DNA of 64,000 bases from Psammoneis japonica (Eukaryota), in the NCBI GenBank assembly GCA_008632985.1, contig QPGO01000220.1, forward strand, positions 1-64,000. Reading direction: 5' to 3'. The translations under genes were made by a program, and so were the position numbers. A model generated the notes under the pieces. That model was given only the letters and a program-made list of their open reading frames with translations, was not told the DNA's origin and did not search any database. Positions 5,409-62,479 of this stretch are shown one piece after another (the stretch's first letter is position 1; every line of letters starts with the position of its first letter).

Positions 5409-8400
5409 ATGGTTCTCACTCGTCAGCAACAAACCGATGGTTTCGAGCACGTTGTTGGAACCGTGCTTGCCCAAGGTGCTGGGAGCCCTCTTCGTTTGGC
5501 TTTGACCCACGACGGCACGGACTCGTGTCAAGAGCTGTTCACGTTCATGCCGTCCCAAATCGACTCGCTTGAGCACGACAACGGCACCAATGTGATCCCT
5601 TTGCCCCGCGGTTGTAAGAACATGTCAGCAGCTCCAACCAGTCTGCACATTGTCAAAGCACACGAAGGTCTTGACGTTGCCAATGACTCCTCGTTGTTCA
5701 CGCATGAGGAGTTCCTTGCCTGCCGCCTCAGCCCCGACTGCATGTCTTCTGCATCCGTTGGCAGCTCGCCCCTCGCACCTCCGCATGTCACCAACCCGAC
5801 CAAGGCACGCGACCCGGTGCGAGACTTCAAGCGAGGCATCAAGCGTGACCCCACCGCTTTCACGGCTCTCAAATCTGACAAGCAGTGGCACACTTGGCAC
5901 ACCTCACTTGTGGCACAAGCCCGTGCCCAAGACGTCGAGTGCACTCTAGACTCGTCGTACAAACCAACCAGCCCCAAAGACAAACTGCTCTTTGCTGAAC
6001 AGCAAAAGCACATGTTCGCCGTCTTCAAACGCATCCTTCTCACCGACAAGGGCAAGGCTCTCATTCGCGAAAATGTGGGGTCTTCTGACGCCCAGACCGT
6101 CTGCCGCGCCTTGTCCGAGCATGCGCTCGCCTCCACCCGCGCATCTGTCAAGTCCTCCACCTTGCTCACGTGCCTCACCACCGCACGTCTTGGTGATGGC
6201 ACTTGGAAAGGTCCGACCCACAGGTTCATCCTTCATTGGCAAGATCAGTCGCGCAAGTGCGAGGCACTCATCCCAGCCAGTGACCACTTCTCTGAAGGAC
6301 AGAAGCGCGTCATGCTCGAGAATGCCGCACATCCTGTCGAGGAACTCCGTGCTGTCAAGAACCAAGCTGATCAGCATCGCATGCAGAGTGGCAAGAGCCT
6401 CACACATGATCAACATTGTGGCTTGCTCCTCTCCGCGGCGGCTCAATGCGACAGTGCGTTTCAACCCAAGATGACACCTCGAGCTCCCCGACGTGCCATG
6501 TGCGCACACGACGTCCACTCCAAGGAACCGTCTGATGATGTGTTCTGTGACATCGACAGCGACATTGACGTCCTTCAGGCCAATGCTGCCTGCCCCTGCG
6601 GTCCCAGCCTCACCGGTGACCAATGGAAGCATCTCCCTCCCAACCACCAACGGATTTGGGATTCGTTGCCCCATTCCTCCAAGGCGATCATCCTTGAGCA
6701 TTCTCATCTGCCTCCCCGTAATCCGCGAGCCAGCAACTGCCATGAGTCCGTTACGGCCAACCTTCACGACCAACACCTTGGGAGTGACAGTGATGTCAAC
6801 TTGTCCAACACGACTCCTGCCGACTCTGGTGACCCCGCTCCAAATGTGGGTGCCACTTCAGACAATCCCATCCTGGCGCACCTCACCAAGTGCAAGCCAC
6901 TGCCACCCGGTGATCTGCAACGCCTGTTGTCGCCCAACCAAGCCCCCAATGCCAGTCGACCGGGGCCATCCGCCGCTCCCTCTACCTCGCCCGCTCCTGC
7001 CGATGACATGGAACTTGACGGCCGCACTTGCCACCGTGTCAACAACCACAATGTCATTTGCTCTGCCTCCGCTCATCGCTCCACATGCACTGGTGCTCCA
7101 GTTGATCGTGGGGCCAACGGCGGCATTGCTGGCGATGACGTTCGCATCATTGCACGCACCTCTCGCCAAGTCGACGTTCAGGGCATTGACGACCATCAAT
7201 TGGTGGACATCCCCATTGTCACCACTGGTGCCGTCATTGAGACACAGCGTGGTCCCGTCATTGCCATCCTCCATCAGCACGCACACACGGGAAAGGGCAA
7301 GACCATTCATTCCTGCGGCCAGCTCGAATGGCACAAACAGGATGTCAATGATCGCTCTGTCAAGGTGCCCAACGGCTTGCAATGCATTGCCACCCCTGAT
7401 GGCTGTGTCATCCCAATTGACGTCAAGGGCGGCCTGCCTTGTGTTGCCATGCGACCTTGCACTGATGCCGAATGGGACACCCTGCCCCATGACATCCTTG
7501 CTGGTGATGACACATGGGATCCTTCCGTCCTCGATCACTCTGTCACTGACGACGACCAGTGGTGCGACGTGATCTCTGACCCACAGGATGATCCCACTGC
7601 CAACCCATTTGACGAACACGGCAACTGCCATCATCGTGTCGTTGTCAACAAGACCATCATGTCCGCCTCCTTGTCTGCCGATCACGCGTCCGCCCTCGAT
7701 GACCATCTCATTCCGAACGACGACGTGTTCTACGAGTGTCATCTGCACGCGATTGACCCCAAGGACGACGACGTTCCGCCCCTGGAGCGCACTGTGCAGC
7801 CCAAGGACCCCCCCTTCAAGTCTCTTCGGCCTTGCTTTGGCTTCCAACCTGCCGACATGGTTTGTCGTACTTTCGACTGCACCATGCAGTGCGCCCGCAT
7901 GCCCGCCGGTGCACACCTTAGGAAGGCCTGCAAATCGCCCAACCCTGCCCTCAATGTGCACCGCCGCAACGAGCCCATCGCCACTGTGTGGACGCTTTGT
8001 TGGCATTGCTGAGCACGTCGGCCACCAAATGACCTTCAAGATTCTCTCTGACGAGACTCAGAAGATCCTCTGCCGGTCCAACGTACGATCCGCTGCCACC
8101 GATCCTGCCGTTCGAAACCTGCGTCTTGATCCTCCTGATGGGGAGCCACCTGAACCCATCATCAAATCTCGCCATGACGACAACCCCGTCGATTCACCCG
8201 ATGGGGAGATCAGGACACCCAAGATGCCAGTTTTCGATCCGCAAGACATCATCGGACGCACCTTCCTCATGCAGCCACAAGAGGACGGACAGCGCCACAG
8301 AGCTCACATCGTCAAGGCCGTCGAAGACCACGAATGGAAAGTGAACGGCAATCCCGAGCTCACTGAGTTCGTCTGCTCTGTCAACAACGACGAATGCGAG

Positions 8401-10430
8401 GAAGTCCTGGCCTGCAACGACATCATGAATCACATTGAGCAAGAAGACGAAGACACTGCTGTTTGGAAATTGCGGCGCATTGTGTCACACGAAGGACCTC
8501 TGAAGCCTCATGACCCAACCTGGAAAGGCTCAAGCTGCAACATTGTGCTTGAACGGGAAAGTGGGGAGATCACGTCCGAGCCTCTTGCCATCATCGCCAA
8601 GGACGACCCTGTCACCTGCACCATCTATGCATGAGAGAACAGACTTCTCGACACTGATGGCTGGAAGTGGTTCCGCACCATCGCGAGGCGCCAGAAGAAG
8701 CCATTCCGCATGGCCAACCAAGCCAAGCTTTGCTCCTTCCACACTGCACCTCGCTGCAAGTACGATGCGAAGTTCCCCGGAACTGCAAACCTGCCATGTC
8801 ACTAGACGAACGCAACGGCAACCGCAAATGGGGAGACGCAACTAATCTCGAGATGGACCAACTCAAGGAATACGAAGTCTTCCATGACTGCGGGCCCTCC
8901 GAGTCTTCCACTCCTCCTGCGGGACACAAGAAGATCCGAGTGCACCCAGTGTACGACGTGAAACACGACGGTCGCCACAAGGCACGACTCGCAGCCGATG
9001 GGCACCTCACGGACGTACCCATCGACAGTGTCTGCTCCGGAGCAGTCTCCCTCCGTGGCCTTCGGCTGATGATTTTCCTGGCCAAACTCAACGAGTTGGA
9101 GACATGGGCCACCGACATTGGCAATGCCTGCCTTGAAGCCACCACCAAGGAGAAGCTCTACATTGCAGCCGGACCTGAATTTGGCAAACTCAAAGGCCAC
9201 ATCCTTGTCATCCACAAGGCCCTGCATGGACTGCGCAGCTCCGGCCTCCGCTGGCACGAGCGCTTTGCCAACTGCCTGCGAGCTGAAGGCTTCTTCCCCT
9301 GCCGCACCGAACCCGACATTTGGATGTGCAGGAACAGCGACCACTGCGAACACATTGCCATTTATGTGGATGACCTCGCCATTGCCATGAAGGACCCTCA
9401 ATCTTTCGTCGACACTCTCATGGAAAAGCACAAGTTCAAGCTCAAGGGTGCGGGACCGATTGAGTTCCATCTGGGCTGCGACTTTTCCCGGGATCCCGAC
9501 GGCACCTTGTGCCTGTCTCCGCGCAAGTGCATCGAGCGCATGGTCAACAGCTGCACCCGACTGTTTGGGGAGAAACCTGCCACCAACGCCCTGTCACCTC
9601 TGGAGAAGGGTGACCACCCCGAACTGGACACTTCCGAACTGCTGGGGCCCGATGGCATTCACAAGTTCCAGTCTCTTGTTGGTTCACTCCAATGGGCAGT
9701 GTCCCTTGGTTGAATTGACATCACCACGGCCGTCATGTCACTCTCTAGCTTCCGAGCTGCGCCCCGTCAAGGCCACTTGGATCGTGCCAAACGTGTCTGT
9801 GGGCACCTCTCCAAGATGCGACACGGCGCTCTCCGCGTTCGCACGGAAGAGCCTGACTGTTCGGATCTCCCTGCTCCAGCCCATGAATGGATGCATTCCT
9901 TGTACGGCGAAGCAGAAGAGATGATCCCAAAGGATGCTCCACTGCCCCTTGGCAAGTTTGTCACTGCCACCCACTGCGTCGATGCAAACTTGTGCCATTG
10001 CATGCTCGCCGGACGCTCTGTCATGGGAATGCTCCACTTCCTCAACAAATTCCCGGCTGATTGGTTCTCTGAGAAGCAAGCCACCATGGAGACTGCGACC
10101 TGCGGGTCTGAATTTGTTGCCGCAAGGACTTGTGTCGAGCAGATTGTCGACCTGCGCATCACCCTGCGCTGCCTTGGCGTCCCGATCCGTGATGTCAGCC
10201 ACATGTTCAGTGACAACAAGTCGGTTGTAGACAGTGCCACCATCCCACACTCCAAGTTACACAAGCGACACACCGCACTGTCGTTCCACCGTGTGCGTGA
10301 GGCAATTGCCTCTGGTTGCCTTGAGTTCCACTTCATCGAAGGCTCCCGCAACCCTGCTGACATTCTCAGCAAGCACTGGGGTTGCTCCCAAGTCTGGGAC
10401 CTTCTCCGCCCCCTCATGTTCTGGAACTTC
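5409..10430 (+). pseudogene. Copia gag-pol pseudogene (gag, aspartic protease, partial integrase, RT, RNase H)
   Basis: DFKRGIKRDP (gag), VDRGANGG (protease), GRFVGIAEHVGH (IN C-term), HKARLAADGH/DIGNA/YVDDL (RT), GSEFVAAR/DNKSV/NPADILSK (RNase H); frameshifts near 7990 and 8760; TGA stops at 8632-8634 and 9711-9713. Confidence 0.93.
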
Positions 10431-10482
10431 ATTCCATCCAAAGTCGAATCTGTTTCTGTGGCTCCTCAAGCAAACTGGGGAG

Positions 10483-10758
10483 TGACAGGATTTGAGCAGG
10501 ATTTGGGTGCGCGCGAAATGTCGCGTGCTGTTTGGTTTGCCGCGCACAGTTTTGTGTGCTTTGGCTCCGTGTGTTCGCACGCGATGCAGTTTGCTTTCGA
10601 GCCACAAGGCTCACAAGAACAACAACAGCCGCCCGATTGCACTGACTTGCACGTCTTTTGGCTCCTGCAACGGTCTCTGAGCGGAGACTCATCTGCCATT
10701 TAGACAGCAGCAAGGAGCCATTGTTTGAATTCTTGCCATTTGCCTTCGATTTCTGTCA
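10483..10758 (+). repeat. 3' LTR
   Basis: Ungapped match to 5' LTR (about 24 substitutions by manual alignment); preceded by short purine tract GGGGAG. Confidence 0.95.
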
Positions 10759-11342
10759 GGCACTTCCAAAACTTGGAAGCATTTGTGGGCATGGGCTTTT
10801 CAGAATCAAATGGAACAGAGAATGTTGTCAATGCTCAAGATGGTGTTTTCATTTGGAGCAAACGCACATTGAAGAAGCTGCAAGAGGCCAAGATGAGCGG
10901 TGCCGAGATGAAGTCGAAACAATTGCATCTAGTCTCACACATGCTTGAGTGCATTTACGATCTGCTCATTTCCCCATCCAAGAATGTTTCAGTTAGTTTC
11001 GGTTTCGAAATGTTCTTGGGAACCTTTAACTGATGCTATAGCAGTGGTTGCATCCACATCGTAGCCGGCTAATGATCATTGCCGGAATTTGCAACACCAC
11101 GCGTGATGCGCTGTGTGCATTGTGCATGCCGTTTCACACAAAAAACATACAGTACTACCGTACGAGCTCTGCACTGAGGGTAATGCAATTATGTTTTTTA
11201 AAGCTTTTGGAGCTCNAAGCCGGTCGACCGGCTTTTTTCCTACACCTGTAGATACGAAGTAGGAGAGTAGGGCCCAGCCTACCTACCGGTATTTATTAGT
11301 CTACCGGCGTGAGTTCCGAGACAGAAATAAGCTGTACCTACC

Positions 11343-21689: not shown

Positions 21690-22289
21690 GGTCTTGCCAC
21701 CTCTGTTGATTCTCCGTGTTCTGCTTCCAACTAATACGTCGCAATGCAATCTAATGAAAGAGCAATCAGTCAACCTGCAATACTTCTGCAGGCTCCAATC
21801 GGTTTTAGACGGGGTTGTGGTCTTGCAACAGGAACGACTACAAGATGCGGTTCGTTTTTTGTTTTTGAGCAGTTGTTCGGGTGAAAAAGTGTGAGGTGAA
21901 ACTACGTGTGTTTATATTCATCCTACAGTGCTGTTAATATAACATCGGTTGAACGGATGAAAGTGAAATTCAGCGAGCTGTATCTTTATTTGTACGTAAC
22001 GGCAAGAACTCGCAAAATGATACTAAAAAAATGAAAAAAGACATTTCAGGCATGCACATTACTTATTAAAGAATAAAATTATTTATAAATGAGTGTATGC
22101 AAATGATCTTGCGTGACATCAACGCACACAACGCATGGATGGAGGGCGGGGGAATCGCGCGACTTCGCACGCTTTTTGGGTGACTGGAATTCGAAAATTC
22201 ATGGAGAGAAAAAACAAAGCGACCCCCAAACATGGTTCTGTCATTTTCGGAATTTGGGAACAACTCTAACTCTAGACACAACATAAACA

Positions 22290-23389
22290 CGCAACCTTGT
22301 CCATGACATTCACCATTGACTTGATTTGTTGGCAGGCAAACTGAGGCTGATGTCAGCGCAGCAACTCTTGCAGAGGTTGGTGACGTTGCAAGAAAAGGCC
22401 CACCCACTTGCAAGAAGTTTTGATCAGGAAGAACGAGAAGCAGATTGGATGAAAAGAAGGCACAGAAACAACATGAAGAAGCCTCTATGACCAGATCTGA
22501 AAAGGGCATGACAAACCTGTGGAGGAGATCAATGAGCTCCTCTGCAAAGGCGTGAAGCGTTGAAACCCATGAAGCCAAAGCCATTGATGGAAAAAGAGCA
22601 TCAGACAGACAAGAGGAAAGCACCAGAAGAGTGGAGATTTAAAGAGCCAGAAGTTGAAAATGAGGAGCTCATGCTGCAAAATGAAGTGTTGATGACTCGA
22701 GCCCAGCAGTTTGAAGCAGTTGGCAGCGACCCCAGGGTCAAGACACTGCATGTGTCGACTTGGCATTCATGATGGGGCACAGGGAACAAAGCTCAACGAA
22801 ATGAAAACAAAAGCAGAGGAGGAGCTGCATGATGCTCAAGGCAAGAATTGCAGTCCATGGACAAAGAACAATGAGCTCAAAGCTGCCATTGACAAACTGA
22901 AAACAAGAGCCATTGAAACAAAAATGAGAGGCTGCTGAAGCATGTTGCACGTCATCATCGAAGAGGCGAGCAGCCGAGAGCTCAACAACACAAAGAGAAG
23001 CTGGAGAAGGAGCTGCACGTGGCTTTGTGTGGATGTCTGCAGCCTGTCTGCTGAGAACAAGAGATTAAAAAAAGAAAAGTTTTGGCTTGAGAAGGGTGTG
23101 GAAAATTGAAATCAGCATGTTCTCAACATTGCAAAAACTTTGACACCCTCAGCAGAGAAAAATGTGATTGCAGAACCAGAGCATGGAAATGCTGGAGGTG
23201 GACATGGACAACTAAGAAAATCATTGCAGTCATGTGGGTCTCCGCAAGGATCAGCAACAGCCCAGTGAGTGCAATGTGCTATGTGAGGATGAAATCTTGT
23301 TTTTCGGATAAAATGAGCTGAAAAGGATCGCTGCTTTAAGAAGATGCTTGGTTCCACCTTGAAAATCTCAAGTCTTTGTGGTGGTGGTG
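22290..23389. repeat. TpA-depleted degenerate island (coiled-coil-like coding relic) adjacent to a gap
   Basis: Broken Glu/Lys-rich + strand frames, very few TA dinucleotides versus TA-rich flank at 22000-22290. Confidence 0.5.
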
Positions 23390-23563
23390 NNNNNNNNNNN
23401 NNNNNNNNNNNNNNNNNNNNNNNNNNNNNNNNNNNNNNNNNNNNNNNNNNNNNNNNNNNNNNNNNNNNNNNNNNNNNNNNNNNNNNNNNNNNNNNNNNNN
23501 NNNNNNNNNNNNNNNNNNNNNNNNNNNNNNNNNNNNNNNNNNNNNNNNNNNNNNNNNNNNNNN

Positions 23564-26392: not shown

Positions 26393-27724
26393 CATCTTGG
26401 GACGCATAACACTGGTTAGTCACGAGGGAAATTGTATAGAGCAATATTAATCATGGACCGTCACTACTATAGCTAGTTGGAATACACAGAAGAATGCTTG
26501 GAATCGCAGAACAATCCCTCCTTTAGCGAATTGAATTGAGCGAGTTCTGAGAACTAGCGATTTGATTGCTCATTTGGAAGAAATGAATGATGCTACTGAA
26601 ATATCTAGTTTAGTGCCCATCAAGATATTATGCAACACGGGAGGGTTTAGCAAATGTCCGATAGCGGGTCCAATGTTTCGAGTGAACCCTGAAGTAAGAC
26701 AACGTTTGTTTGAAAGCAAGTGCAGCTTTGCAATGCTGAAAATTAAAATGATGTCAACTACAGCTAATTTGCCTTACTGAGAAAACAGACTCCCCCCCCT
26801 CTCTCTCTCCTCTTGGTGTCCTCGTTTTCTATAAGAGGTTGATCCATGCACCCGCATCAGAAGCAAGCAAAGGTGAATTTTCGTCGGGCATGTCTTCGTC
26901 CGAGGTCTGAATCATGTGACACGAAAGAAACTGCCCAACTTTCCTTGACACCACTTTTCCATGCTCGGTCTCGGGTTCCAAAAAGGACGTTGAGGCAATC
27001 CTTGCAAGATGTCACAGACCAGAATTTCTTTAGTCAGCAAGTCTTGAGAATGCCATCATCGCAGCACTGTAGGATTGAATCCCGCTCCGCACTTGATCAT
27101 TGTCAACCTGGCAACAAGCACTCCAAACAACAAAGCAGAAAGCCCAAAGCAAAGAGACAGGCCCAGAGGGAGCATTGGGTGAATCCCAGTTGATCACAGG
27201 AGAGGTCAGCACAGCAGAAGAAGACACCAGCAGTTTGCTCAGTGGACATCACAAGCCAAGTGCAAAGCCATGCATGGCTGCTGGGTTGTCATTGGTGCTG
27301 ACAATCTCAATGTGCACTTGTCAATGATGTGCTTTTTGCAGTTTTGCAGAGAGAGAAAAGCAAGCTTGGTGAGTCCTTCCAATGTTGATCACAGAGTGAA
27401 ACTGCATGAGTGCTCACTTGCTGTTTCACTGCCAAGGGCAGAGAAAGACAAGTGTGCTCCACTGGGCTGCTGACAGCAGAGTGCAAAAAATCGCCTCCAC
27501 ACCCACAACAAAGTCCAGCTCTTTTGATTTTTAGCACCACCAATGTGACTTCCAGCTGGCCTGATTCAGGCGCAACATCCCTGTTGATCCTGCATCATTT
27601 TGGCCCCTCTTTGTTGTTCTTCTAAGTGCCAGCACAGCCTCTGCCAAACTCAGAACAGTGCTCCATGGTGACGAGTCAGGAGATTTGCATCTGTGCAGCC
27701 AACCACCAAAAGAAATGGCACAAT

Positions 27725-28095
27725 CATCATGATGAAACAGCAAGAGTCCAGTGGTGCAAACCCAGCCAGGGCCTGCACATCCAGGCAGGCTGCTTGTGCT
27801 GATCTGAGCAAAAAACACTCTCTCTGTGACCACCAGAGAGAGCAACTGTGTCAGAGGAGCTGGCAGCAGGTGATGGCAGGGCCTGTGACCAGCATGTGGC
27901 TGCTGTGTTCATGACAAAACAGCAGGCATCTGGCAGCCCAAACCCAGCCATGACCTGTGCACCCAGGTGGGCTGCTTCTGCTGATCTGAGTGAAAGGCCC
28001 TTTTTGCAACCAGAGAGTGGCTGTGGCAGAGTGGCCAGCAGCAGCAGCTGATGGCAGGGCCTGCAACCAGCAGCATGTGGGGCTGCTGTGCTCTT
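27725..28095. repeat. Degenerate ~185-bp tandem duplication
   Basis: AAACCCAGCCA...GCTGATCTGAG and GATGGCAGGGCCTG..ACCAGC..ATGTGG each occur twice. Confidence 0.7.
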
Positions 28096-29807
28096 TGGTG
28101 GAGAGGCCTGACACAAGAGTCTGGGTGTCAGTACCAGCCTGACGCTGACAACATGTGCAATCACTGCCTGCTCCCCACACCCCAGGCCATGTCCCCACAC
28201 CACACATCCCTTCAATCATGGGCTCAGAGCAAACCCAGGCAGGACACCATTGGTTTGGCCAGGAGATTGAAGATGCTCTGTGGGTGGATGTGAGCATTCA
28301 TTTGAATGTTGAGTGCTGATGCTCAAACACAGTGTGAAAAGACATGTGTTGCGTGCACCAGCCATGCACATGCAGAGCCTCTGTGACAACAGAAATTGCA
28401 ATTTTTGGGATTTTTTGCCAACGCCAAAATCAAACATCACAATGCCATGCTGAGTGCTGGTGAATGCATGTGGCTGATGATGAATGTCCTAACTGAGCAT
28501 CATTTTTTGAAGAGGCTGATGCCCCCTGCAGATGATGAGAAACTCCCAACCAGTGCCAAAAAGTCACAGAATGAGAGTGATTGCTCCAAGGATGAGGTGT
28601 GGAAAACACAGCTGCTGAGTGCTCAAAAAGGCTGGCACAAGAATGACACAACAGCTGCTGATGCCATGGAGTCAACATGACAAACAAACAAAAACAATGC
28701 TGGGTGGGGGGTGAGCCATGTGTGTGTGTGTTTTGGCTGCAAGGCTCTGTGTTGCTCTTGAACAAAAGAGCGACATTGCACTTTGTTGCAGAGGTGGTTG
28801 GAGTGTGGTGCTTTTGGAACCCTAACCTGCTGCAATGATTTTTGACTGAGAGTGCTGCAGCAGCAACTCTGCTGTCAGTTGAACACAAGAGAGACAGTGG
28901 CATTGCTGACAGTGGGGTCAGACAGCATGGCTGCATGGACTGATCTTGCGCATGCGCAGCAGGCTGAGTGGTTGCCAGATTGTGAAGGCACACGTGCATG
29001 TGTGAGGTGCAAGCAGGAGGCCAAAATGTGCAGAGTTGTTGATGCTGAGTGAGTCAGCAGATGGTGGATTTTTTCCTGTGCTTGATCTGTGTGCTCTTCA
29101 CGTGGAACACGACAATGTCTGGGTGTGTTGTGGGGGGTTTGCACATGACACACAACACACATGTTGTGCTCTTAACATGCACATGATCCAACTCAAAAAA
29201 GTGCCAGTGCAGAACACTCCAAAACAAGACTGGAGTCTGGTAAAAAAATCTGTTTAAAGTGGTCAGACGAGCAGGGTTGTTTTGAAGATTTCTCAAGTTG
29301 CCCTCATTTTTGTTGGGTGTGTCTCAAAACATCTGCCAGCCACTGGCTCAGCCAAAATGTGCTGCCCCTCTCCTTCACACACAAACAGCAGCCACAGCAC
29401 AATGATGCCCAATGACCAGCACCACAGCAGCATGGCAAGCAAAGCAAGTGGTGCTCACCAATTTCCACGAGTGCAGATGTTTTGAGATGAGATCAAAGTG
29501 ATTGTGGATGACACATGCTTTGTTCCTGGGCCAAGTTGCATTTTTTTCTCATCACTTGTCATCATGTCATTTTACAATGTTTTGAAACACTGTTTTGTGT
29601 GAGATTCATGTGAGCACTTGCTTGGAAAAAGCAAGGTCTCAAGTGCATCTCACTTCTTTGGCCACACCACCAATGGCTTTTCTTGCAGGGCGTTGCCAGT
29701 TGGGCAGTCACATTAAACCTGGCTGGGCACAACCAACTGGCCCTGTCCAGGTTTGCTCATGTGCTCTTGTTGTTGCTGCTTGTTGTGTTGCTTGCACCAG
29801 GTGACAA

Positions 29808-30219
29808 GGTTGTGAGGAAAAGCTGAAAAGAAAAAAGAAGGCTTCAAAGGCTCCGCTGGTGGCTGGAGATCTGTTTGCACACCCGAGTCGTGCATGAGTT
29901 TGCACTCTGTTGACACCGGTGTTCTGTGGGGCACTGTGTGTCTGACATCAGTGATCAAAGCATGCATGTGGTGCTGCTGTGTTGTCACAATGAGATCATT
30001 TTGATTCAAGATGACGCTTCTGTTGCCTCTGTTTTTGCTTCTCTCGGAGGCGGTCAGGGATTGGTGCAATGCATGGGATGGGACCAAACGCACCCTTGAC
30101 AACACATTTGAAGTCCACCTGAATGATGGCCAAACTGTGATGCAAGGGTTGGGCAGCATCACACTGGGCAACGGAATCTGCTGCAAGATGTCTGCAAGCC
30201 CCCACCTTTGCATCAGCCA
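29808..30219 (+). pseudogene. Hypermutated partial copy of the upstream region and 5' CDS of the 37326-38405 gene
   Basis: Aligns to about 37125-37552 (TTGTGAGGAAAAGCTGAAAAG; GGGCAGCATCACACTGGGCAACGGAATCTG). Confidence 0.92.
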
Positions 30220-30829
30220 ATGATGTCAATGCAGTCACATCATTTGCACCTGCACATGATCTCCAGAGCTGCAGCCCTCATTCTTTCTCTGCCTTGCTGG
30301 GTTTGGGTGGATGCAAACATGAGAAAGACAAAGTGTTGGTTGTGAAAGCTTTTTTGCTTCTTTGGCTGTCAACACATCTGAGCATTTCCTCTTTGCATGA
30401 CATTGACCTGACGAGAGTGTGAGTTGTTGTGTGGGAGCGGCGATGTGGCAATGTGGGTGTCACCAACACCCCACAGCCTTCAAGAACAGAGCAGAAAACT
30501 TGTCTTTGTCATCTTCTTTGTGGATGATGGGTGAATGTTTTGAGGCAGATCGTGCTCTGTTCTCACTTTGTACACTGGCCAGTGCCGTCGTGTTCTCTCC
30601 TCTGTGTCTTCAGAGTGCCAACATGCTTTCTGCAGTGAGGGAATTGTTTGTGGTTGTTGATGCACCTGCCCCCCAAGTGCCAAAGAAAGCCATGTCCTGA
30701 GCTTTTGCTTTTTGCAGATTGTGGTGGTGCCCTTCTCGTGACCAGGATTCTGTCCATGCTTTGCCACTGCTGTGGCAGATGTGTGTGATGCATGGTGTGC
30801 TTTCTTCAACACCCTCCAGGTCTCCAACA

Positions 30830-31830
30830 GGACTGATCAGAGCATGTTGCTCTGCTCTTGCAGGACTTGTGCCTTCTTCATCTCCATCAGTGGCTCCATC
30901 ATCTGTTTCAGGCACTCTCCTGAGTGAAGCTCCAAGCAAAGCCCCCACTGACAAACCTTCTCAAGTCCCCAGTCCACATCTCCAACTGTCAAATCCATTG
31001 TCATGCTGTCTTTGTCTCCATCCATGGTTCCCAGTGACATGCCGACACCATCATCTGTTGGACCCTCCAGTTCTCCATCTGACAAGCCAAGTCCAGCCAA
31101 TTGAGCACAGGACTTGTGCCTTCATTGGCTCTCTGAGCACCCACATCATCTCCTTCTGAAGGTGCGCCAGGCAAGCTCCAAGCAAAACACCCAGTGATGA
31201 AACTTCTGGTGCACCATCTGCTGTTCCATGTCAATCACCAACCAGCAAACCTGGTGTTCTTGCACTGCTTTCATCTCCATCCTTGGTTCCCAGTGATGTG
31301 ACGACACCATCATCATCTGCTGCACCCTCTGGTTCTTCATCTGATGAGCCCAGCCAATCAAATGCAGAACTTGTGCCTTTGTTGGCTCCCTCAGCAGCTG
31401 CACCATCTTTTTCTGGAGGTGTGCCAAGTGAAGCTCTGGGTGAACACCCAGTGACAAAACTTCTGGCACTCCATCTGCTGCTCCACGCCAATCTCCAATC
31501 GTCAAATCTGGTGTTGCACCACCTTCATCTCCACCATTGGTTCCCAGTGATGTGCCAACACCATTGTCATCTGCGGCACCCTCCAGCTCTCCATCTGATG
31601 AGCCCAGCCAATCAAATGCAGGACTTGTGCCTTTGTTGGCTCCCTCAGCAGCTGCGCTGTCTGTTTCTGGAGGTGCGCCAAGTGCTGAAGCTCTCCAGGT
31701 GTTAGACCCAGTGACAAAACTTCTGGCACTCCATCTGCTGCTCCACACTAATCTCTAACTGGCAAATCTGGTGTTGCACCACCTCCATCTCCATCCTTGT
31801 TTCCCAGCGACATGCCGACAGCAACATCAG
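30830..31830 (+). repeat. Four ~250-bp tandem units encoding degenerate Pro/Ser-rich stalk (PSDVPTP..SAAPSSSPSDEPSQSN)
   Basis: GCAGGACTTGTGCCTT-like anchor near 30860, 31107, 31365, 31618; resembles a pseudogenised cell-surface protein. Confidence 0.8.
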
Positions 31831-34200
31831 ACAGGCTGGAAATTTCCATCTGGCGGGAAATTGATTGACACCCTGTGTGCAACCAAACAACCAAACAGTT
31901 GTTAGCTGAGGGTTCTGGTCAACTCCTGGTGACCAAGGGGTGGACTTTAAGAGCATTCATTGCAGTTGGCTTGGTTCATCTGGTGTTGTTTTGGTCCGAC
32001 AACACCCAAGGCCATCAGCAGACTGACTTGATTTTTCCATCTGGACAATGGATGGACACCCCAAGTGCAAGAACCAACTGGCTGTGCAGTTGTCAGCCAA
32101 GGGTTCTGGCCTTCTTGCTGTGTGCCTGGGCTGGACTTTAAGAGCATTTGTTGTCATTGGCAAGGTTCATCTGGTGTTGCTTGGGGGGTCAAAATTGCCC
32201 AATGATGGCAGCCAGCAGGAGACAGCTGACATGATTTTTCTGTTGGGACAATGGACAGATTCATCAAGCACGACAAACAAACCAAACAATTGTCAGCAGA
32301 GGGCTCCATTCAACTCATTGTGATCCAGGGGCAGACTTTGAGAGCATTTGTTGTGGTTGTCTTGGCCCATCTGGAGTTTTTTTGGCACAACATTGCCCCA
32401 GGCTGGAAGCAGAGATGTGCTTGAATTTTCCACCTTGACAATGGATGGACACCCCAAGTGCAACAAAGAAACCAAACAGTTGTCAGCTGAGGGTTCCAGC
32501 CAATTCATTGTGCTCCTGGTGCCAACTTTAAGAGCATTCATTGCAGTTGCCTTGGGTCATCTGGTGTCATTTTGGCCCAGCATTGCCAAAGGCAATCAGC
32601 AGTCAGACTTGATTTTTCCATCTGGGCAATGGATGGATGCCCCAAGTGCACCAAACTGGCCATGCAGTTGTCAGCCAAGGGTTCCAGCTTTCTCACTCTG
32701 CCCCTGGGGTGGACTTTAAGAGCATTTGTTGTGGTCAGCAAGGCTCCTGTCATCTGGCATTGTTTTGGATCAAGAGGTCACACAAGGGCAGCATCAAACA
32801 GACTCAATCTTTCTGTCTGGACAATGCACCAGGTTGTCAGCAGAGGACTCCAGCCAACTCACTGTGACCTGCAGGTGGACTTTAGGAGTGGCTGGTGGTT
32901 GGCTTGTTTCATCTTGTGTTGTTTTGGCCCAACTCTGCCCCAGTCTGGCAGCCGAGACAGGCTTGCTTTTTCCATCTGAACAACAGACACCCCAAGTGCA
33001 ACAAAGAAGTCAAACAGTTGTCAGCTGAGAGTTCTGACCAACTTGCTGCCTGTGACCCAGGGATGGATGAGAGAGCTTTCATTGCGGCTGCCTTGGCTCA
33101 TCCCTCTGGAGTTACTTTGCCCCAACATTGCCCAAAAACAGCAGCAGACAGACTTGATTTTTTTGTCTGAACAATGGACAGACAACCCAAGTGCTGCAAA
33201 CTGACCATGCAGCTGTCAGCCAAGGACTCCAGCCAATTTGCCATGGCCCAGCAGTGGACTTCAATGGCATTGTTGTGGCTGGCTTGTCTTGTCTTGTGTT
33301 GTTTTAGCCCAACATCACACCAGTCTGGCAGCAGACAGAGACTTGCATTTTCCACATGGGCCATGGACAGACACCCCAAGTGCAACAAAGAAACCAATCA
33401 GTTGTCAGCTGAGGGCCAGCTCACTGTGACCCAGGGGTGGGCTTTAAGAGCACTCATCATGGTCATCTTGGTTTGGCCTTTGGTGCTGTTTTGGCCATGT
33501 GACAGACTTTCAAAGCATTCATTGTGGTTGCCTCAGTGTTCATCTGGTGTTGTTTTGGCCCAACATCACCCAAGAGCAGCAGCAGACAGACTTGAATTTT
33601 TCATCTGGACAATGGATGGACACCCCAAGTGCTGCAAACTGACCATGCAGCTGTCAGCCAAGGACTCCAGCCAATTTGCAATGACCCAGGGGTGGGCTTC
33701 AATGGCGTTGTTGTGACTGGCTTGGCTCGTCTTGCACTGTTTTAGTCCAACATCACACCAGTCTGGCAGCAGACAGAAACTTGCATTTTCCACATGGACC
33801 ATGGATGACACCCCAAATGCAACAAGAAACCAAGCAGTTGTCAGCTGAGGGTTCTGCCCAGCTCACTGTGACCATGGTCATCTTGGTTTGGCCTGTGCTG
33901 GTGCTGTTTTGGCCATGTGACAGGCATTCACTGTGATTGCCTTGGTGTTCATCTGGTGTGTTTTGGCCCAACATCACCCAAGAGCAGCAGCAGACAGATT
34001 TGAATTTTCATCTGGACAATGGATGGACACCCCAAGTGCTGCAAACTGACCATGCAGCTGTCAGCCAAGGACTCCAGCCAATTTGCCATGACCCAACAGG
34101 GGTGGACTTTAACAGCCAATGAACAAACCCCAAGCAGTTGTCAGCTGAGGGTTCTGGCCAGCTCACTGTGACACAGAGGTGGCCACCTTGGTTTGTCATT
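31830..34200. repeat. ~190-bp tandem satellite-like array, about 12 diverged units, A/B alternation
   Basis: GACACCCCAAGTG-like anchor near 31868, 32055, 32448, 32636, 32986, 33181, 33370, 33619, 33807, 34026, followed by CAG(T/C)TGTCAGC. Confidence 0.88.
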
Positions 34201-37200
34201 CTATGGTGTTGCATCAGCCATGTGACACCCCAGCCCAGCAGCAGATGCAACAGAGTCCCTCTCACCAATGACTGGACACCTGAAGTGGCAACAAAGGTTG
34301 TTGAAATGCCGCAGCTGTCTTGCTTTGTTTCCAACAAAGAAGCACACATGGCTTTTGAAAAAATGGCAGAACTTGAACACACTTGCAACATTCTGCAGTG
34401 GCAGATGGGACATGTTGCATCAACAAATGTTGAACTCCTTTGAGGGAGAAAATCACAATCACAGGTTGGCCCTCAGAAAGGGCTCAGAAGACAGCTGTGC
34501 CTTGAGAGTCATCATCTTTGCACTCATGCTCTGAGGCATCTTGCTGCAACTGGGATTCTTTTGCTTGGTTCTTTGGTCACAAAATGACCCCAAGGTGAAC
34601 ATTGCTTGATTTCTTCTTTCTGGCAATTTCCACCAACAACTTGCCAATTGGAACATGTGATGTCACCCCTCCACAAAGATCAATGCTCCCACCAGCTCCA
34701 AATGTTTCACAGCTTCTTTGTGCAGCTTTTTGACTCTTTCTGTGTCAAACACATGCAAGTTGGCATCAGCACCTGTGTCAGCCAGGTTCATTGACTGGAA
34801 AACAAGCAAAGTGCATTCCCCTCCAGAAGCCAGAAAATCAGCATCAACTTTGTCTTTGTTTTTTGGTGGAGAGAATGTTTTCTAGATGGAGTCTTGTCTG
34901 TTGCCTGTCCTCTGTGATCTGATTTGCTGAACAGCTGTTGGCACTGCAACTGTGGTGGTGAAGATGGGGCAATGTCCACAACCTTCCCAGTTTCCTCCAA
35001 AGCCACCAGAGTTGCACCTTTTGGTTGGGCATCACATGTCAGAGTCAGAGTGAAGAAGACCTGCTGACTGTAATTTCTGGCTTTTGTTGCTCCTGCTTGT
35101 GCTCTGCTCTTGCCTTGTTTCTTTCCAGCATGCAAGTTTTTGATCCTTGTCTTCAACTTCTCAATCTCATCAAACCCACCTGACTTCTCTCTGCCTTTCT
35201 TGCCAAGCAAGATCTCTCTTCTCTGCAGCAACAACAGGACAATGCTGACAATGGGATTGCACCATCACATTGCAATGCATGGCACAGTGCACCCCAATGC
35301 CAATGACATTGCTGCCAGCAGGAACACTTGAGCCAAAGAACAAAGAAGTGGCAGAGTCCTTCATGGCAGGGGCAGTGAATGGATGTCAGGGTGATGTTGA
35401 TGAAAGGAACACCAAAAAAGTTAAGATGACTGTCAACTCAACCAAAAGAAGCAGACATCAAGGTGAGAACATCATGAAAGTGCTGGCTTGATTTTGTCAT
35501 GTGTCCTTTTCCAAGAAGTGTCCTCAACAGCTCTGCTTTTTGCATTTTCAGCAGAGCCAAGGAGACAGTGCAGTCAAACCCCAATAAAAACATTTGGCGA
35601 GTCATCCTCAGAACAGTTTTTCTCTTTTGTTTTTCTGGTGACTCAAAAAAAGAATGCATTTGACCACCATTCTTGCAGCCAGAATGTCAAAGAATCCTTT
35701 GCCTGCAAGTCTTGTCCCGCAAACCCAACAGGATGAGAAAACCATGGATGGGGCTCAATGATCAAATGTTTGCTGCATTCAGAATCAGAAGAAACTGTGT
35801 GGTGGAGTGCCACATGGAAAGCCAGTTCCACCAACATGCACTGACTTGGATCATTTTGTTGCGCTCCACTTGACTCTCTGTTGATGCACGCGGCATTGCA
35901 CCACAGGCCCCAGATGAGAACAATGCTGTGCCTGAAGCACAGTCCAGGAATGCTGGTGGAGGAGGGCACCAGTTCATTCCTGGAGCTCTGGCAATGGGTT
36001 GCTCCCCAAAAGATTGGAGGTGCCCTCAAACCCAGAAACATGTGTGAGACAGCGGCTGGCATGCAGGAATGAAACCCAGCAATGTCCAAGAAGGAAGACC
36101 CACAAACTCACCTGGAAAAAGGTGAAAACTCCAACAATGCAACTGGGAAACCCTGTTTCCAGCAATTCCTCCAGAAAACGTGCCATGGTGCATCCAAAGT
36201 CATGCATGAAGAAGTTCGTGCAGAAAATCCAGCAACAGTTGTGTGCAGTGTCCCAAAACTGCTCAACAAAGTTGAAGATGCTGCACCCACAGATCAGATC
36301 TGGATCTTTTTGGTGTGTGTTTGCATGTGTTTGAGGATGCCTTGCATGTTGTGCAGTGTCCATGAAGATCTGGATCCAACCCAGATGTTGTTTTGAAAGT
36401 CCAAACAAACAACATGCATGCAGCACAGCAATTGACCATGTGTTTTGGCAACACCAGGAGAGATCTGGGCAGTGCACAAGCAGGAGGAGCACCACAGACA
36501 ATGCTGCAGGTTTCACAATGGTCGTTTGCAGTGTTGTGGTTTTGACAATTCATTGCAGACTCTGCAACATCATCATCACAGACTCCCAACACTGTGAGAG
36601 TGCCCATGACGCTGTGTTGTGGGGAAGCCATGGAGTCTGGTGCACCACATCCAGGCCTTTCTGAGACACTTGCTTGTGCAGCGCACTGCTCTCATGGAGA
36701 GGAGCACAGCTGTGATCTTGGGTCAACTTCAAAGCTGCCTTTTTTCATTGTGGCTTGCTTCTTGTGCACCCAGCCTTGGCTCTGAGGGTCTGCCAATTTG
36801 CTGGAATGACCCAATTCCCCCCCTTGACCCGCTTTGCCGGTTTTCAAAAAGGCCACTCATTGCTGCACACCCAGAGTGAAAAGTGCTGCATGCTGCTCTC
36901 TTCATTTACACTGGCACCTTGCAAACTGCTGGTCCGCTTCCCAGTGTGACGCCGCCAGAAAAAAAAAACTCCAAGACCTGGCTGGCGCTGTTGAGCAATC
37001 TTTCCAAGTGTTGGAGGCTTGATGGCAGATGCAGGAACATCAAGAAGTCAAAGAGGAAAACCTCGGTCTAACCCGAGGATGGCATTGCTGACAATGGGGT
37101 CAGTGACAACAGATTCAATGAGAGATTGTGAGGAAAAGCTGAAAAGAAGGCAAGAATGAAGAAGGCCATTCAAAATGACGGCAGGAAACCGAACGCGAAT

Positions 37201-37325
37201 CGCGCATGAGGTCACCGTGCACCGTCGTGTTTGAGTCACCTTGATGACACCAATGTTCTGCGATCTGCGATCTGCGATCTGCGAAATTGTGAGATGTTGT
37301 GATCGTACTGAGCATCACCATCACG

Positions 37326-38405
37326 ATGAGATTATTTGGATTCAGAACGACGCTTCTGTCGCCTCTGTTTCTGCTTCGCTCGGACGCGGTCGGGGATTGG
37401 TACGATGCATGGGGCGGGACCATACGGACCCTCGATAATGCATTTGAAGTCGACCCGAACGACAGCCGAACTATGATGCGAGGGTCGGGCAGCATCACAC
37501 TGGGCAACGGAATCTGCAAGATGTCCGCAAGCCCCCGCCTTTACATCAGCCACTCATCGGATGTGGCAGGGTGGGAGAATACCGACTTCCAGGTGTACGG
37601 AATGTTCGTCCAAGCTGGCAACCTGAAGAGCTACTCCGGCCTTACCCTGGTGACCCGGTCCAATCACGATCTGTACAGCACCGACGGCTGCGAGGCAATG
37701 GGATACTACGCAAGAATCTACTGGCAGACGGGCGAGCTGTCGTTCCAGAAGGAGTATTACCATGGGTCGGGTGGCACAGTTTACAGCCCATCGAAGAGAG
37801 TCCCGTACTTTGTCAACGGCGTCCCAATGAACACCTGGATCGGGATGAGGTTCACAGCCACAACGACCGGCTCGAACAACGACGAGGTACAGCTGAAACT
37901 TTACCTTGATGAGGTTGGCGACGGGAGCTGGGTCCTAAGACACTCGTACACCGACAAATCTGGCGAGTGGTTGAGCACAAGCTCGTCCACCGTCCCAGCA
38001 GAATGCCCACAGAGCGATGGCGACACGGTCCTGGGCCCGCGCAACGTCTGCTTTCTCCGATCCGACGGGTCGTCCGACACGGAGGTGCACTGGAAAGACG
38101 CTCTCGTCCTCAACGAGTTGGATCCATTGCCGACATCGTCCCCAGCTCCGTCGACTTCTCCGATTCCTATCGTTTGTGAAGGCATCGTGCCCAAATCGGC
38201 ATGCAACGACGCTTTCGGTGGTTCTGTGTGCAAATGGAGTGGGCACCCAAATAAAGGATCGTGTGGGCCTGTTGATGGCGGAGGTGCAGGGCCCGGACCG
38301 CCCTCGGGTTGTGGTGGAAACAATGCCCCGTGCTCCACCCCCTCGCAAAACACCGCTGATTGCTGCAGTGGCTGGTGCAAAGCAAATGGGAAGTGCAGTA
38401 AATAA
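37326..38405 (+). CDS. Putative secreted protein: beta-sandwich (lectin/polysaccharide-binding-like) domain, P/S linker, Cys-rich C-terminus
   Basis: Hydrophobic N-terminus; aromatic-rich beta strands (NTWIGMRF, VQLKLYLD, FLRSD); C-terminal C..CCSGWC....KC; start could be 37299. Confidence 0.7.
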   Translation: MRLFGFRTTLLSPLFLLRSDAVGDWYDAWGGTIRTLDNAFEVDPNDSRTMMRGSGSITLGNGICKMSASPRLYISHSSDVAGWENTDFQVYGMFVQAGNLKSYSGLTLVTRSNHDLYSTDGCEAMGYYARIYWQTGELSFQKEYYHGSGGTVYSPSKRVPYFVNGVPMNTWIGMRFTATTTGSNNDEVQLKLYLDEVGDGSWVLRHSYTDKSGEWLSTSSSTVPAECPQSDGDTVLGPRNVCFLRSDGSSDTEVHWKDALVLNELDPLPTSSPAPSTSPIPIVCEGIVPKSACNDAFGGSVCKWSGHPNKGSCGPVDGGGAGPGPPSGCGGNNAPCSTPSQNTADCCSGWCKANGKCSK

Positions 38406-38870
38406 TTCCCAGGACTGCCGGTCACCGTATCCACGAATGCTCCTCCAGGCCGGACCCTGCTACTGTCTTTAAAAAACGCGCGATGCCAATCATTCCAAAA
38501 GCGAAAAGAGGCAATTAAAACAACACCAATCTACAACATTAACATCTTTCATGCTCTGCTGACTTCGCTTGAGTCACGCTGTTGCTCTGGGCTTGCGACG
38601 TATGAAGGACCACCGCCCCACGTCCCATCGCCAAGACCTTCGTATCAAGAGGAGACTTACATTATTTTGACATTAAATCATCCCGCTTTTACGACTTAAG
38701 CGCGAAGACAGACGTGAGACGCTCGATTGTCTCGCAGAGGCTCACGGTGGAGACTGTGCGTGAGAGACGGAGCATTTTGTGCTGGTTACGCACTCTGTTG
38801 GATACGAATCATCTGTCTAAAACTCTATAGCTATAGTACTACAGTAAACGGTAGATATAGTAACTAAGTT

Positions 38871-46959: not shown

Positions 46960-47600
46960 GGATGTTGCGGATTCCACAACGTCCATAACGTTAGGTTGCG
47001 GAATCCGTAACGGAACGAATTGTTAAAATCCGTAACAGTTACGGAATCCGCAACGAAACGCAATGTTGGAGAAGCCTCATCCTTGATGGAAGGTTTCCGC
47101 AATGTCCATTCCGTAACGTTACGGTGCGGAATCCGTAACGAAGCGCAATGTTTGAGAAATCTCATCCTCGAAAGAAGGCTTGAAAGATTTCGGAAATCGA
47201 GTCCGCAATGTTTGAGGAACACTGTCCTTGATAGAAGGTTTCCCCAACGTCCATTCCGTGACGTTGCATTGCGGAATCCGCAACGAAACGCATTGTTTGA
47301 GAAATGACATCCTCGATAGAAGGCTTGAAACATTTCGGAAATCCAGTCCGCCATGATTGAGAAACCCCATCCTCTATGGAAGGTTTCCACAACGTCCATT
47401 CCGTAACGTCCTGGAAAGATTTCCGCAACGAATCGTTAGGGAATCCGTAACGAAATGCAATGATTGAGAAACCTCATCCTCGATGGAAGGTTTCCACAAC
47501 GTCCATTCCGTAACGTAACAGAATCCGTAACGAAACGCAATGTTTGAGAAATCTCATCCTCGAAGTAAGGCTTGTAACGTTTCGGAAATCGAGTCCGCTC
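46960..47600. repeat. Complex CpG-rich tandem repeat (sub-units GGAATCCGTAACGAAACGCAATG, CATCCTCGATGGAAGGTTTCC, CGTCCATTCCGTAACG)
   Basis: Sub-units recur several times over about 640 bp. Confidence 0.9.
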
Positions 47601-52661: not shown

Positions 52662-54123
52662 GGTGATATTGTTGATGCGATACTTCACTTTCTTGCCAGA
52701 ACTGCGATTGTGAGACGAAGAAAGTGCGTGGCACAGTGCGTGCTTGCGTCTTTCGGATTTTCGCGTGAAGGCAATCGTGTCCGTCAAGTGCGAAGTTGGT
52801 TTTGACACAATTTAAACGGTACTGGGTCAATCAAAGTAATCATCTCGAATCCAAACTTGGAATGGCGCTACAATCTTCAGCGTCATGGCACAGCGCTTTT
52901 TCGTTCGCTCGTTTGCTCCTGGAGACTTTGCCAGAAATCTGTGTGAGGCAATCATTTTTGTCGTGCTTTCCGTTGACACGCATCTGACACTTACTTCTAT
53001 TTATAGTGGGGCTGTAGCGCCCAGCGCGGCTGAAACGCCTGACTTATGTGCGTACCAGCAAGAGAAGCCGACCAGGCAAGATCTGAATCTCCTGACCGAT
53101 GGCTCGACACCAGCAACGACCCAATACCAATAGTTCTATGACTCATCCAGCTTTGAAGGAAAATCAAGTCCAAACTTCTGACAACTCACTCAGCCNAAAC
53201 CTCAAGAAAGCAAAAATCAACAGCGATGGCAGAGAAAAATGGTTTTTGACAACAAGGGAAGCTGAGACACATCATCTGGGTGCCAGCCACTGATGTTGAG
53301 ATGCCAAGTGCCAAAATGCACATGGTGACACTCCACTCACATGATTCCATGCAACACAAGCACCATGTCATGTCCTCGTTGTGCTGTTCACCACTGCAGA
53401 AATGTTTGAAACGTGTTTTGTCAAAACTCGCTGCACACAGCTCGTCTGCCAACAAGGGCGCAGACAAAGCTTTGGAAAGCAGCGGCCCAAGAAAGCAATC
53501 CACCAACCCTTCCACGCCACACCCAGCGATGGCAAGAGTGCTCCCATTTCCATTTTTATAGAAAATTTAGATTCTCCGTTTCTTCCTTTGGAACCTTCTC
53601 CTGTCACAACCACAGAGCCCACCTCCAACCAGACACCACCAGCAGCATCGCGCCAAGGAGACTTTTTGAGACTGCCGGTTCATTTGCAAAATTCATTGAT
53701 CCCAATGATTCAGCTTCCTTTAGAGTCCCATTCCAAGACACCCAACATTTTTGGCAATCGACAAAATTAACTTGAAATTCACAATGTCTTCTGAACCACA
53801 ATCGCGCGAGAAATTGTGAGCTGCAGCAGCTTCTTCAAACATGGCCCACCACCACGACATCATCTGCTTCGCGAGAACATCGTACCACACAACAAGTCTA
53901 TTGGCAAACACACGACACCTCAAAGCTCTGCTGCAGGGCCTGGATGCCTTCTCCAACAAGTTCGCCACCGGCACTGCTGTGAACTTCCACAACACGCGGG
54001 GCAATAAATGTACGAAAAAAAAGCGCGAACAACCAGCGAAAGCTTGGCAACCCGGATCTCGGTATCCGAAACTTTCCATCCGACATGCGAACAGCACATC
54101 CAACATCAAAAACCGATTTCACC

Positions 54124-62237: not shown

Positions 62238-62479
62238 GCTTAGCGACCCTATGTTCTCGTTGCCACCATTGCCTGTGTAGCGGTAGAGCTTGTGACAGGT
62301 GTGTGTTGCTCCATTACATTAGTAGTTTTCATTTTTTTATCACCACTTGACGGAAACGCTGTCGCTGAAAAGGCACTTGTCATGCCCACGGTTTGTCTGT
62401 CCAAGCCTTTCTTTGAGATTGTTGCTATGTGGCAATGCTTCGGAAGTCGCAGGAGCTAGGTAGAGCCATCTGTTGGAGC

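Follow-up and report, generated by a model that had tools for sequence, protein, structure and literature searches.

How can one copy of a gene segment lose most of its TA and CG dinucleotides while its partner, 7.3 kb away, is spared? This question is raised by a stretch of 64,000 nucleotides of Psammoneis japonica DNA (NCBI GenBank assembly GCA_008632985.1, contig QPGO01000220.1, positions 1 to 64,000 of the forward strand), the whole of which we call the window. It holds an intact gene for a 359-aa (amino acid) protein and, upstream of it, a dead partial copy of that gene, which lies in an island where TA and CG are nearly erased and TG and CA doubled. Our analysis suggests that the copy was probably hypermutated in place, by a process aimed at the island as a domain. 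The pair comprises three features:

37326 to 38405, plus strand: intact gene for the 359-aa protein, recognised by its uninterrupted open frame and its homologues.
37122 to 37552, plus strand: parental segment of the intact gene, the counterpart of the copy (blastn, MAFFT and an alignment recoded to purines and pyrimidines).
29806 to 30219, plus strand: dead partial copy of the neighbouring gene, taken from its 5' end and non-processed (same three methods).

A blastn comparison of 36801-38800 with the window gave one strong match, 37321-37552 with 29985-30219 (84.681% identity over 235 columns, E 3.5e-71), a second block in which 25 of 26 bases were identical (96%; 37123-37148 with 29807-29832) and a weak match of 24 bases (E 2e-4; 37080-37103 with 28898-28921). 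MAFFT found patchy homology across the ~200 bases separating the 26-base block from the main block, and the three methods together placed the upstream start of the homology at 29806/37122. The fragment is thus 414 bases long and consists of upstream region and the first ~76 codons. It is disabled by a TGA at codon 5 (30002-30004) and a 3-base insertion; its homology to the gene ends at 30219, with an in-frame TGA at 30221-30223. Because ~180-200 bases upstream of the start codon were carried along, the duplication took place at the DNA level and not through a retro-copy, and with parental upstream sequence present and its frame broken the fragment is a non-processed pseudogene. Upstream here means relative to the start codon. 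Using tblastn with 149 open reading frames (ORFs) from the normal parts of the window, we found no parts of this gene or of other local genes in the island beyond the fragment. Recoding to purines and pyrimidines, which can reveal older homology, returned only the known pair; its other matches, of 24-35 letters, were at chance level for a two-letter alphabet.

The differences between gene and fragment are concentrated at two dinucleotides. Within 37321-37552, 33 of the 232 aligned positions differ: 17 of 44 in CpG, six of 12 in TpA and ten of 176 elsewhere, an excess over the other positions for both CpG (p 1.5e-7) and TpA (p 1e-4; Fisher's test). Five of the six TA of the intact gene have become CA or TG in the fragment (37333 T>C, 37402 A>G, 37436 T>C, 37473 A>G and 37543 A>G in the MAFFT alignment) and the sixth has become AA (37423 T>A). 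Among the 22 aligned CG, 14 have become TG or CA, three something else, and five were kept. Changes from CG or TA to TG or CA ran 19 times from gene to fragment and 0 times in the reverse direction (sign test p 3.8e-6). Both strands were affected, with three TA to TG against two TA to CA, and eight CG to TG against six CG to CA. There are 19 C>T or G>A differences and eight A>G or T>C. After recoding, the two sequences are 96.25% identical over 240 columns, so their divergence is nearly all transitions. At two further sites one copy has TG and the other CA; such a TG/CA split suggests an ancestral CpG mutated in both lineages.

The direction of change can be read from the homologues. We aligned the intact gene's protein and the translated fragment with 16 outgroup homologues. 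At the 21 positions where the two differ, outgroup residues showed the gene's state 144 times and the fragment's state 19 times. All nine positions at which at least nine outgroups agree favour the intact gene (Gly23, Ala39, Asp43, Pro44, Arg48, Arg52, Ser54, Arg71 and Tyr73), and at Tyr73, where TAC has become TGC, or Cys, in the fragment, the gene's state is found in 16 of 16. Since the outgroups agree with the gene, the fragment carries the derived states. The original prediction had aligned the same two segments, listed five TA turned into TG or CA and one into AA, noted many CG with the same fate, and taken the copy with the open frame as the unmutated one. The alignments reproduce each of these observations, and the outgroup comparison that it proposed comes out for the intact gene and not for the TG/CA states of the copy. 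It had also spoken of a duplicate of the intact gene; the duplication is real, but it covers only the 5' fragment and not the whole gene.

The surroundings of the fragment are equally erased:

27090 to 37060, no strand assigned: hypermutated island, with TpA and CpG nearly erased and TpG and CpA doubled (1-kb windows, segmentation).
36830 to 37306, no strand assigned: right border zone of the island (TA and CG positions, 200-base windows).

In 1-kb windows from 27001 to 37000 the observed/expected ratio (o/e) is 0.02-0.19 for CG and 0.02-0.09 for TA, and 1.56-2.18 for TG and 1.65-2.07 for CA. Only 33 TA and 74 CG occur in all within 26900-37060. Segmentation of the window placed the island at 26801-37400, with a TA o/e of 0.06 and a CG o/e of 0.16. 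Its GC content is 0.47-0.52. The summed frequency of the four pyrimidine-purine (YR) steps TA, CG, TG and CA is 0.2415 in the island, 0.2476 in a second region that holds a copia element, and 0.2427 in normal DNA. The surplus of TG and CA therefore equals the deficit of TA and CG, as transitions at TA and CG predict.

The loss is regional, and it begins and ends abruptly, over no more than a few hundred bases. On the left, TA and CG stop at ~26835-27090. On the right, CpG is back from ~36830 and reaches full density from 37179, and TA is back only at 37306. The 237 bases without TA that lie upstream of the intact gene (37069-37306) were considered as a sign of spreading, but this was dropped, as normal DNA has four comparable gaps of at least 200 bases and the gap is not significant. 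Because TAA and TAG are nearly absent, stop-to-stop ORFs are long in all six frames of the island; 90 of them reach 70 aa or more, the longest 207 aa. A Pfam search of all 90 (17 + 73) found no domain, and these ORFs are by-products of the missing TAA and TAG, not genes. As to any foreign origin of the targets, the island thus offers no Pfam domain and a host-gene fragment, and the copia region a reverse transcriptase domain (RVT_2).

Could such a pattern arise by neutral decay of a pseudogene under a general mutation bias, or might modified bases have misled sequencing or assembly? Pseudogenes commonly lose CpG, and TA is under-represented throughout the genome, with an o/e of about 0.4-0.7 in normal 1-kb windows. 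Yet non-coding spacers outside the islands hold TA at 0.67-0.89 and CG at 0.73-1.15, and a general bias explains neither the sharp borders nor the small number of differences at sites other than CpG and TpA (ten of 176). The polarisation of the changes by outgroup proteins speaks against it as well. An independently built contig from the run labelled X1 (1394 letters, depth 35) matches 28800-30180 with 0 differences, which excludes an assembly or polishing error and leaves room for a sample-specific oddity. We therefore regard this explanation as highly improbable.

The same contig accounts alone for the X1 depth in the bins 29124-29447 and 29772-30095, which weakly suggests that the neighbourhood of the fragment is low-copy. 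Many X1 contigs at least 85% alike fall on 30.1-36 kb. Forty of the 150 differences between X1 contigs and the window comprise 15 of CG against TG or CA (eight one way, seven the other), three involving TA and 22 others; being unpolarised and mixed with paralogous contigs, they say nothing about ongoing activity.

The intact gene was spared, and selection alone does not account for this. Its coding sequence has CG at the mostly synonymous phases (47 against 45.8 expected at phase 3|1, 32 against 27.5 at phase 2-3), and TA at phase 3|1 at the usual background level (7 against 15.4 expected, o/e 0.45). Protein selection cannot maintain synonymous CG and TA, so location, and not only selection, has spared the gene.

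This sparing bears on whether duplicated sequence is sensed by pairing, as in the repeat-induced point mutation (RIP) of Neurospora and other fungi. Duplicates would then be paired and mutated, and the fragment would have been struck as a duplicate or by leakage from neighbouring repeats. The likeness is considerable: RIP too mutates repeated or selfish DNA densely, by transitions alone and at particular dinucleotides, so that coding capacity is lost and a dinucleotide-skewed island remains. The island here is repeat-rich, with tandem arrays besides the similar X1 contigs, the fragment is itself a duplicate, and, in the available text of PMC9998398, diatom DNMT4 enzymes are related to fungal RID. 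Fungal RIP depends on a RID-type methyltransferase-like protein and takes place before meiosis. RIP as described in the available parts of PMC2621366 and PMC7296669 changes C:G to T:A mainly at CpA, creates TpA, lowers GC and mutates both copies. In contrast, the process here destroys TpA and creates CpA and TpG, so that its TpA direction is opposite to that of RIP; its C-to-T changes are at CpG rather than CpA, GC stays at 0.47-0.59, and one copy is spared, with the 19 directional changes all on the other. The partner is unmutated even at synonymous CG and TA. Erasure is equally deep beyond the 414 homologous bases, in flanks that have no partner in the window. Finally, a tandem repeat outside the islands is unmutated:

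46969 to 47598, no strand assigned: unmutated control tandem repeat outside the islands (composition, unit differences).

These 630 bases contain 20 TA against 45.3 expected, the normal level, and 53 CG against 33.4 expected. Their units differ by ten transitions and seven transversions, with 0 TG/CA splits in two adjacent double differences. Minus-strand ORFs of 103-197 aa overlap the repeat, which is possibly part of a repeat-containing gene. The spared partner, the possibly low-copy neighbourhood and the unmutated outside repeat together favour domain targeting over homology targeting, and we consider a RIP-like mechanism unlikely.

Repeats inside the islands show that the mutations were made in DNA, in place:

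27727 to 28093, plus strand: two tandem units of ~183 bases each, in the island (blastn, unit alignment).
31015 to 31829, plus strand: tandem array, 3.2 copies of a 254-base unit (Tandem Repeats Finder, blastn).
31820 to 34230, plus strand: tandem array of about a dozen ~190-base units, ten of them aligned (unit alignment).
4186 to 10759, plus strand: copia-type retrotransposon with a candidate pair of long terminal repeats (LTRs) at 4186-4469 and 10476-10759 (RVT_2, LTR alignment).

A TG/CA split between copies needs an ancestral TA or CG that was resolved separately in each, so arrays with such splits were amplified first and mutated later, unit by unit. Across the ten aligned ~190-base units there are 14 column pairs at which TG stands in some units and CA in others. 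Six control double-transition pairs gave 0-3 split columns each and eight together; four of them scored 1-3, and AT+GC and CT+TC scored 0. Among the split columns of this array, CG still stands in one unit and TA still in one unit. The two ~183-base units differ at 40 of 177 aligned positions, and eight of their 13 adjacent double differences are TG/CA splits. Comparison of 33074-33702 with 33514-34112 gave seven of ten, and TG/CA thus makes up 15 of the 23 adjacent double differences in these two comparisons. The retrotransposon, whose RVT_2 match (E 5.3e-22) lies at 8658-9713, has LTRs that are 90.8% identical over 284 bases. Their 26 differences comprise six TG/CA splits (12 differences), five of CG against TG or CA, one of TA against TG or CA, four other transitions and four transversions, and each LTR retains 18-20 CG against 1-2 TA. 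The LTRs of one element are identical at integration. If this rule holds for our pair, their changes came after integration and not by RNA editing.

RNA editing would work differently. An ADAR-like enzyme would change A to I after U in a transcript, reverse transcription would fix the change, and the fragment would be a retro-copy that arrived already mutated. A>G after T does match the neighbour preference of ADAR, as set out in the Discussion of a preprint on Bigelowiella natans (Mettrop et al., bioRxiv 2026, 10.64898/2026.01.13.699255; our statements about it refer to its available text), and a copia element is present in the window. Against this, the fragment includes ~180 bases before the start codon and has no retro-copy hallmarks, and its changes affect both strands (three TA>TG, two TA>CA). 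The LTRs differ by TG/CA splits that would not be expected of copies identical at integration, and the tandem units do likewise. RNA editing also leaves the CpG transitions unexplained. It is already contradicted at this locus, and we find it scarcely credible.

Mutation of the DNA itself, in place, is thus common to a retrotransposon, satellite arrays and a gene fragment. The original prediction had held that host sequence other than transposons is affected, that one copy of the coding sequence is spared, unlike in classical RIP, and that the pattern should recur in other gene/pseudogene pairs. The fragment of a host gene family, in an island whose ORFs lack Pfam domains, agrees with the first, the synonymous CG and TA kept by the unmutated gene with the second, and the common signature of the LTR pair and two tandem arrays, within the window, with the third.

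Is this one process or two? Segmentation found five TA-erased islands in the window, with TA o/e of 0.06-0.17 and CG o/e of 0.16-0.86; their borders span a few hundred bases each, and genes and spacers beyond them are normal:

801 to 11000: TA-erased, CpG-retaining island with the copia element (TA 0.08-0.11, CG 0.68-0.86, GC raised to 0.55-0.57).
22101 to 23500: TA-erased island (TA 0.11, CG 0.45).
26801 to 37400: TA-erased island holding the fragment (TA 0.06, CG 0.16).
53101 to 54000: TA-erased island (TA 0.17, CG 0.57).
62401 to 64000: TA-erased island that continues beyond the end of the window (TA 0.06, CG 0.19).

TA loss is similar in all five and CG is graded, which means that TpA erasure can be near complete with CpG almost intact. 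The copia island keeps most of its CG, so the TpA component can stand alone; here the process is seen at an earlier stage than in the island that holds the fragment. The TpA and CpG changes are therefore probably two separable processes, a fast one at TpA and a slower decay of CpG. The TpA process has a preferred context. Only 11 of the 98 TA that survive in the islands are in ATA or TAT, and in normal DNA the share is 643 of 1391 (p 1e-12). ATAT occurs 100 times in normal DNA and 0 times in the islands, and TTAA and CTAA/TTAG are the best survivors.

The alternative is a single enzyme system for both palindromic YR steps, such as a deaminase whose substrates are the A of TpA and the C of CpG. 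TA and CG are indeed lost together, ending as TG and CA on both strands, in the island with the fragment and in 62401-64000, and ADAT2-type enzymes, cited in 10.64898/2026.01.13.699255, reportedly deaminate A as well as C in DNA. This does not fit the copia island, where ~90% of TA is lost and CG is kept at 0.68-0.86, nor the wide range of CG (0.16-0.86) across islands of similar TA, nor the 18-20 CG that survive against 1-2 TA in the LTR pair. The available text of the preprint mentions CpG 0 times. One enzyme for both steps seems to us very unlikely. Decay of 5-methylcytosine at CpG would account for the CG part, since it gives TG and CA on both strands in repeat DNA, as here (eight TG and six CA from 22 CG). 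Repeat DNA and transposons are the methylated fraction in the diatoms studied so far, according to the available text of PMC9998398. Such decay cannot account for the loss of TA.

The sequence of events that we consider probable is as follows. An ordinary partial duplication at the DNA level would have copied the 5' part of the neighbouring gene, upstream sequence included, and the fragment would have come to lie in a gene-free, repeat-rich island of ~10 kb. All DNA in such islands, whether satellite, retrotransposon or host-gene fragment, would be rewritten in place on both strands by transitions from TA and CG to TG and CA. The fast component would be specific to A:T to G:C changes at TpA, with ATA and TAT preferred, and is most likely the work of an enzyme that deaminates adenine in DNA. 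Chemistry directed at thymine on the other strand leaves an identical footprint and is indistinguishable from it by sequence. The slower component, from CpG to TpG and CpA, is most likely the deamination of 5-methylcytosine in methylated repeat DNA. The target would be a domain, presumably of silent chromatin, and duplicated sequences would not need to pair. Under domain targeting, the intact paralogue, a few hundred bases outside the border, keeps its TA and CG at synonymous sites. Of this picture, the data show the signature and its direction, its origin in place in the DNA, its restriction to regions and the sparing of the intact copy, and from these we infer the chemistry, the enzyme and the chromatin cue.

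Several points weigh against this picture. The pair offers only six TA sites. Tyr73 to Cys is the sole TA change that the outgroups polarise firmly, as Tyr26 and Met50 are at variable positions, and at Gly30, also variable, the fragment's Asp is found in six of 16 outgroups. The two TG/CA splits imply that the intact gene has itself lost two CpG. As the 237 bases without TA could indicate, TpA erasure may extend a little farther than the border set by CpG. The control repeat at 46969-47598 may be coding and hence protected by selection. Run X1 is probably the assembly's own sample, and so not independent. The flanks of the fragment could be repeated elsewhere in the genome, our comparison being with the window, and such repeats could trigger the process and let it spread into neighbouring DNA. 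Lastly, the chromatin domain is a presumed targeting cue.

The closest known process is in B. natans. In mutation-accumulation lines of this alga, two integrated viral regions, of giant-virus and virophage DNA, mutate ~1000-fold faster than the remaining genome, in only some of the lines. Nearly every change is A>G or T>C (210 of 211 in the region from a nucleocytoplasmic large DNA virus, NCLDV), and all are at TpA. The authors proposed a DNA adenosine deaminase, and TpA-depleted coding sequences of B. natans are enriched in reverse-transcriptase and DDE domains (10.64898/2026.01.13.699255). The locus described here shares the change from TpA to TpG or CpA according to strand (five of six TA in the pair; TA o/e 0.06 and TG and CA ~1.8 in the island) and the regional confinement, with clusters of TpA depletion and CpA plus TpG enrichment.

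The process here also differs from that in B. natans, in lineage, depth, CpG decay, flank preference and target. B. natans is a chlorarachniophyte, within Rhizaria, and our genome is diatom-like; the word diatom occurs 0 times in the available preprint text. There the process is presented as directed against foreign DNA, and here a host-gene fragment and satellite arrays are mutated and the parent gene is spared. Erasure is deeper, with a TA o/e of 0.06 against a Rho of 0.45 in the NCLDV region. CpG decay co-occurs here, of which the available text makes no mention, and the near-exclusive A:T>G:C of B. natans contrasts with 19 C>T or G>A against eight A>G or T>C in our pair. We see a preference for ATA and TAT; the words context and trinucleotide are absent from the available text, though its Table S2 may contain a flank analysis. 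Rates were measured in B. natans, and here we see the end state only. The process lacks the defining features of RIP that were compared at this locus, namely the direction of change, the dinucleotide, the effect on GC and mutation of both copies. In the full-text literature, as far as the available text of each source goes, the B. natans preprint was the only report found of TpA-specific A:T>G:C hypermutation of DNA, and none was found in diatoms. A diatom paper, PMC4504042, was returned as a TpA report and set aside, as the match was to 'Tpase-like'.

The gene that was spared encodes a protein with a hydrophobic N-terminus, a concanavalin A (ConA)-like beta-sandwich domain, a Pro/Ser/Thr linker and a Cys-rich tail. 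It has 39 homologues (best E 4.4e-91, identity 40-59%), and the source could be seen for three: a Thalassiosira-like MMETSP entry, Odontella aurita and Emiliania huxleyi. Judged by these, the fragment is derived from a host gene family whose members occur in diatoms and haptophytes. The protein matched no Pfam family, and when PDB sequences were searched with the profile of its family there were 0 matches. An AlphaFold2 model built on a 34-sequence alignment (mean predicted local distance difference test score, pLDDT, 82.3) has a core whose Foldseek neighbours are the L-type lectins VIP36 and ERGIC-53, legume lectins, CBM66 and an alginate lyase (template modelling score, TM, 0.3-0.6). In the model, then, the core is a concanavalin-A-like beta-sandwich, at fold level only.

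Relatives of the ConA-like domain with ~25-33% identity lie on long, prokaryote-like metagenome contigs (loci L012-L080), and in the one examined (L015:9068-10750) a Laminin_G_3 domain precedes the relative and is fused to it. By sequence similarity the domain is an uncatalogued family common to diatoms, a haptophyte and prokaryotes. Four long, eukaryote-like metagenome loci of relatives (L004, L005, L006 and L010, ~51 kb) have 0 1-kb windows with a TA o/e below 0.5; being gene-dense contigs from other organisms, they tell us nothing about the process.

Two observations concern the region before the gene. A perfect 7-base microsatellite, TCTGCGA x 4, lies at 37257-37284, ~40 bases before the start codon. 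An X1 contig is 14 letters, or two units, shorter there, and the repeat number is probably polymorphic. From a second run, X2, an exact contig of 2459 letters (depth ~180) starts at 37306, 20 bases before the ATG, and extends past 38500 toward a convergent AAA-ATPase gene. If X2 is a transcriptome, 37306 marks the 5' end of a transcript. X2 has nothing exact on the island; the kind of run is not on record, and gaps in its cover prove nothing.

What this locus provides is a natural experiment, in which ~230 coding bases exist in two settings, within a mutated island and immediately beyond it, and can be polarised by outgroups. The process is blind to coding content and strictly bounded in space, which argues for an epigenetic or domain cue over homology sensing. 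The locus also separates the TpA process from CpG decay, and the border at 36.8-37.3 kb gives any model concrete coordinates. For annotation, such islands yield false long ORFs, as TAA and TAG are absent, that are liable to be called genes, and they conceal transposons and pseudogenes from homology searches. The chances seem about even that diatoms have a domain-guided, DNA-editing defence. It would change A:T to G:C at TpA, with ATA and TAT preferred, in any DNA of a silenced island, independently of homology and separably from CpG decay, and its border would be sharp enough to lie only a few hundred bases from an active promoter. If this is true, then together with Bigelowiella it would make adenine-directed (or thymine-directed) genome editing a shared trait of the SAR (stramenopile, alveolate and rhizarian) supergroup, and the functional mirror image of fungal RIP.

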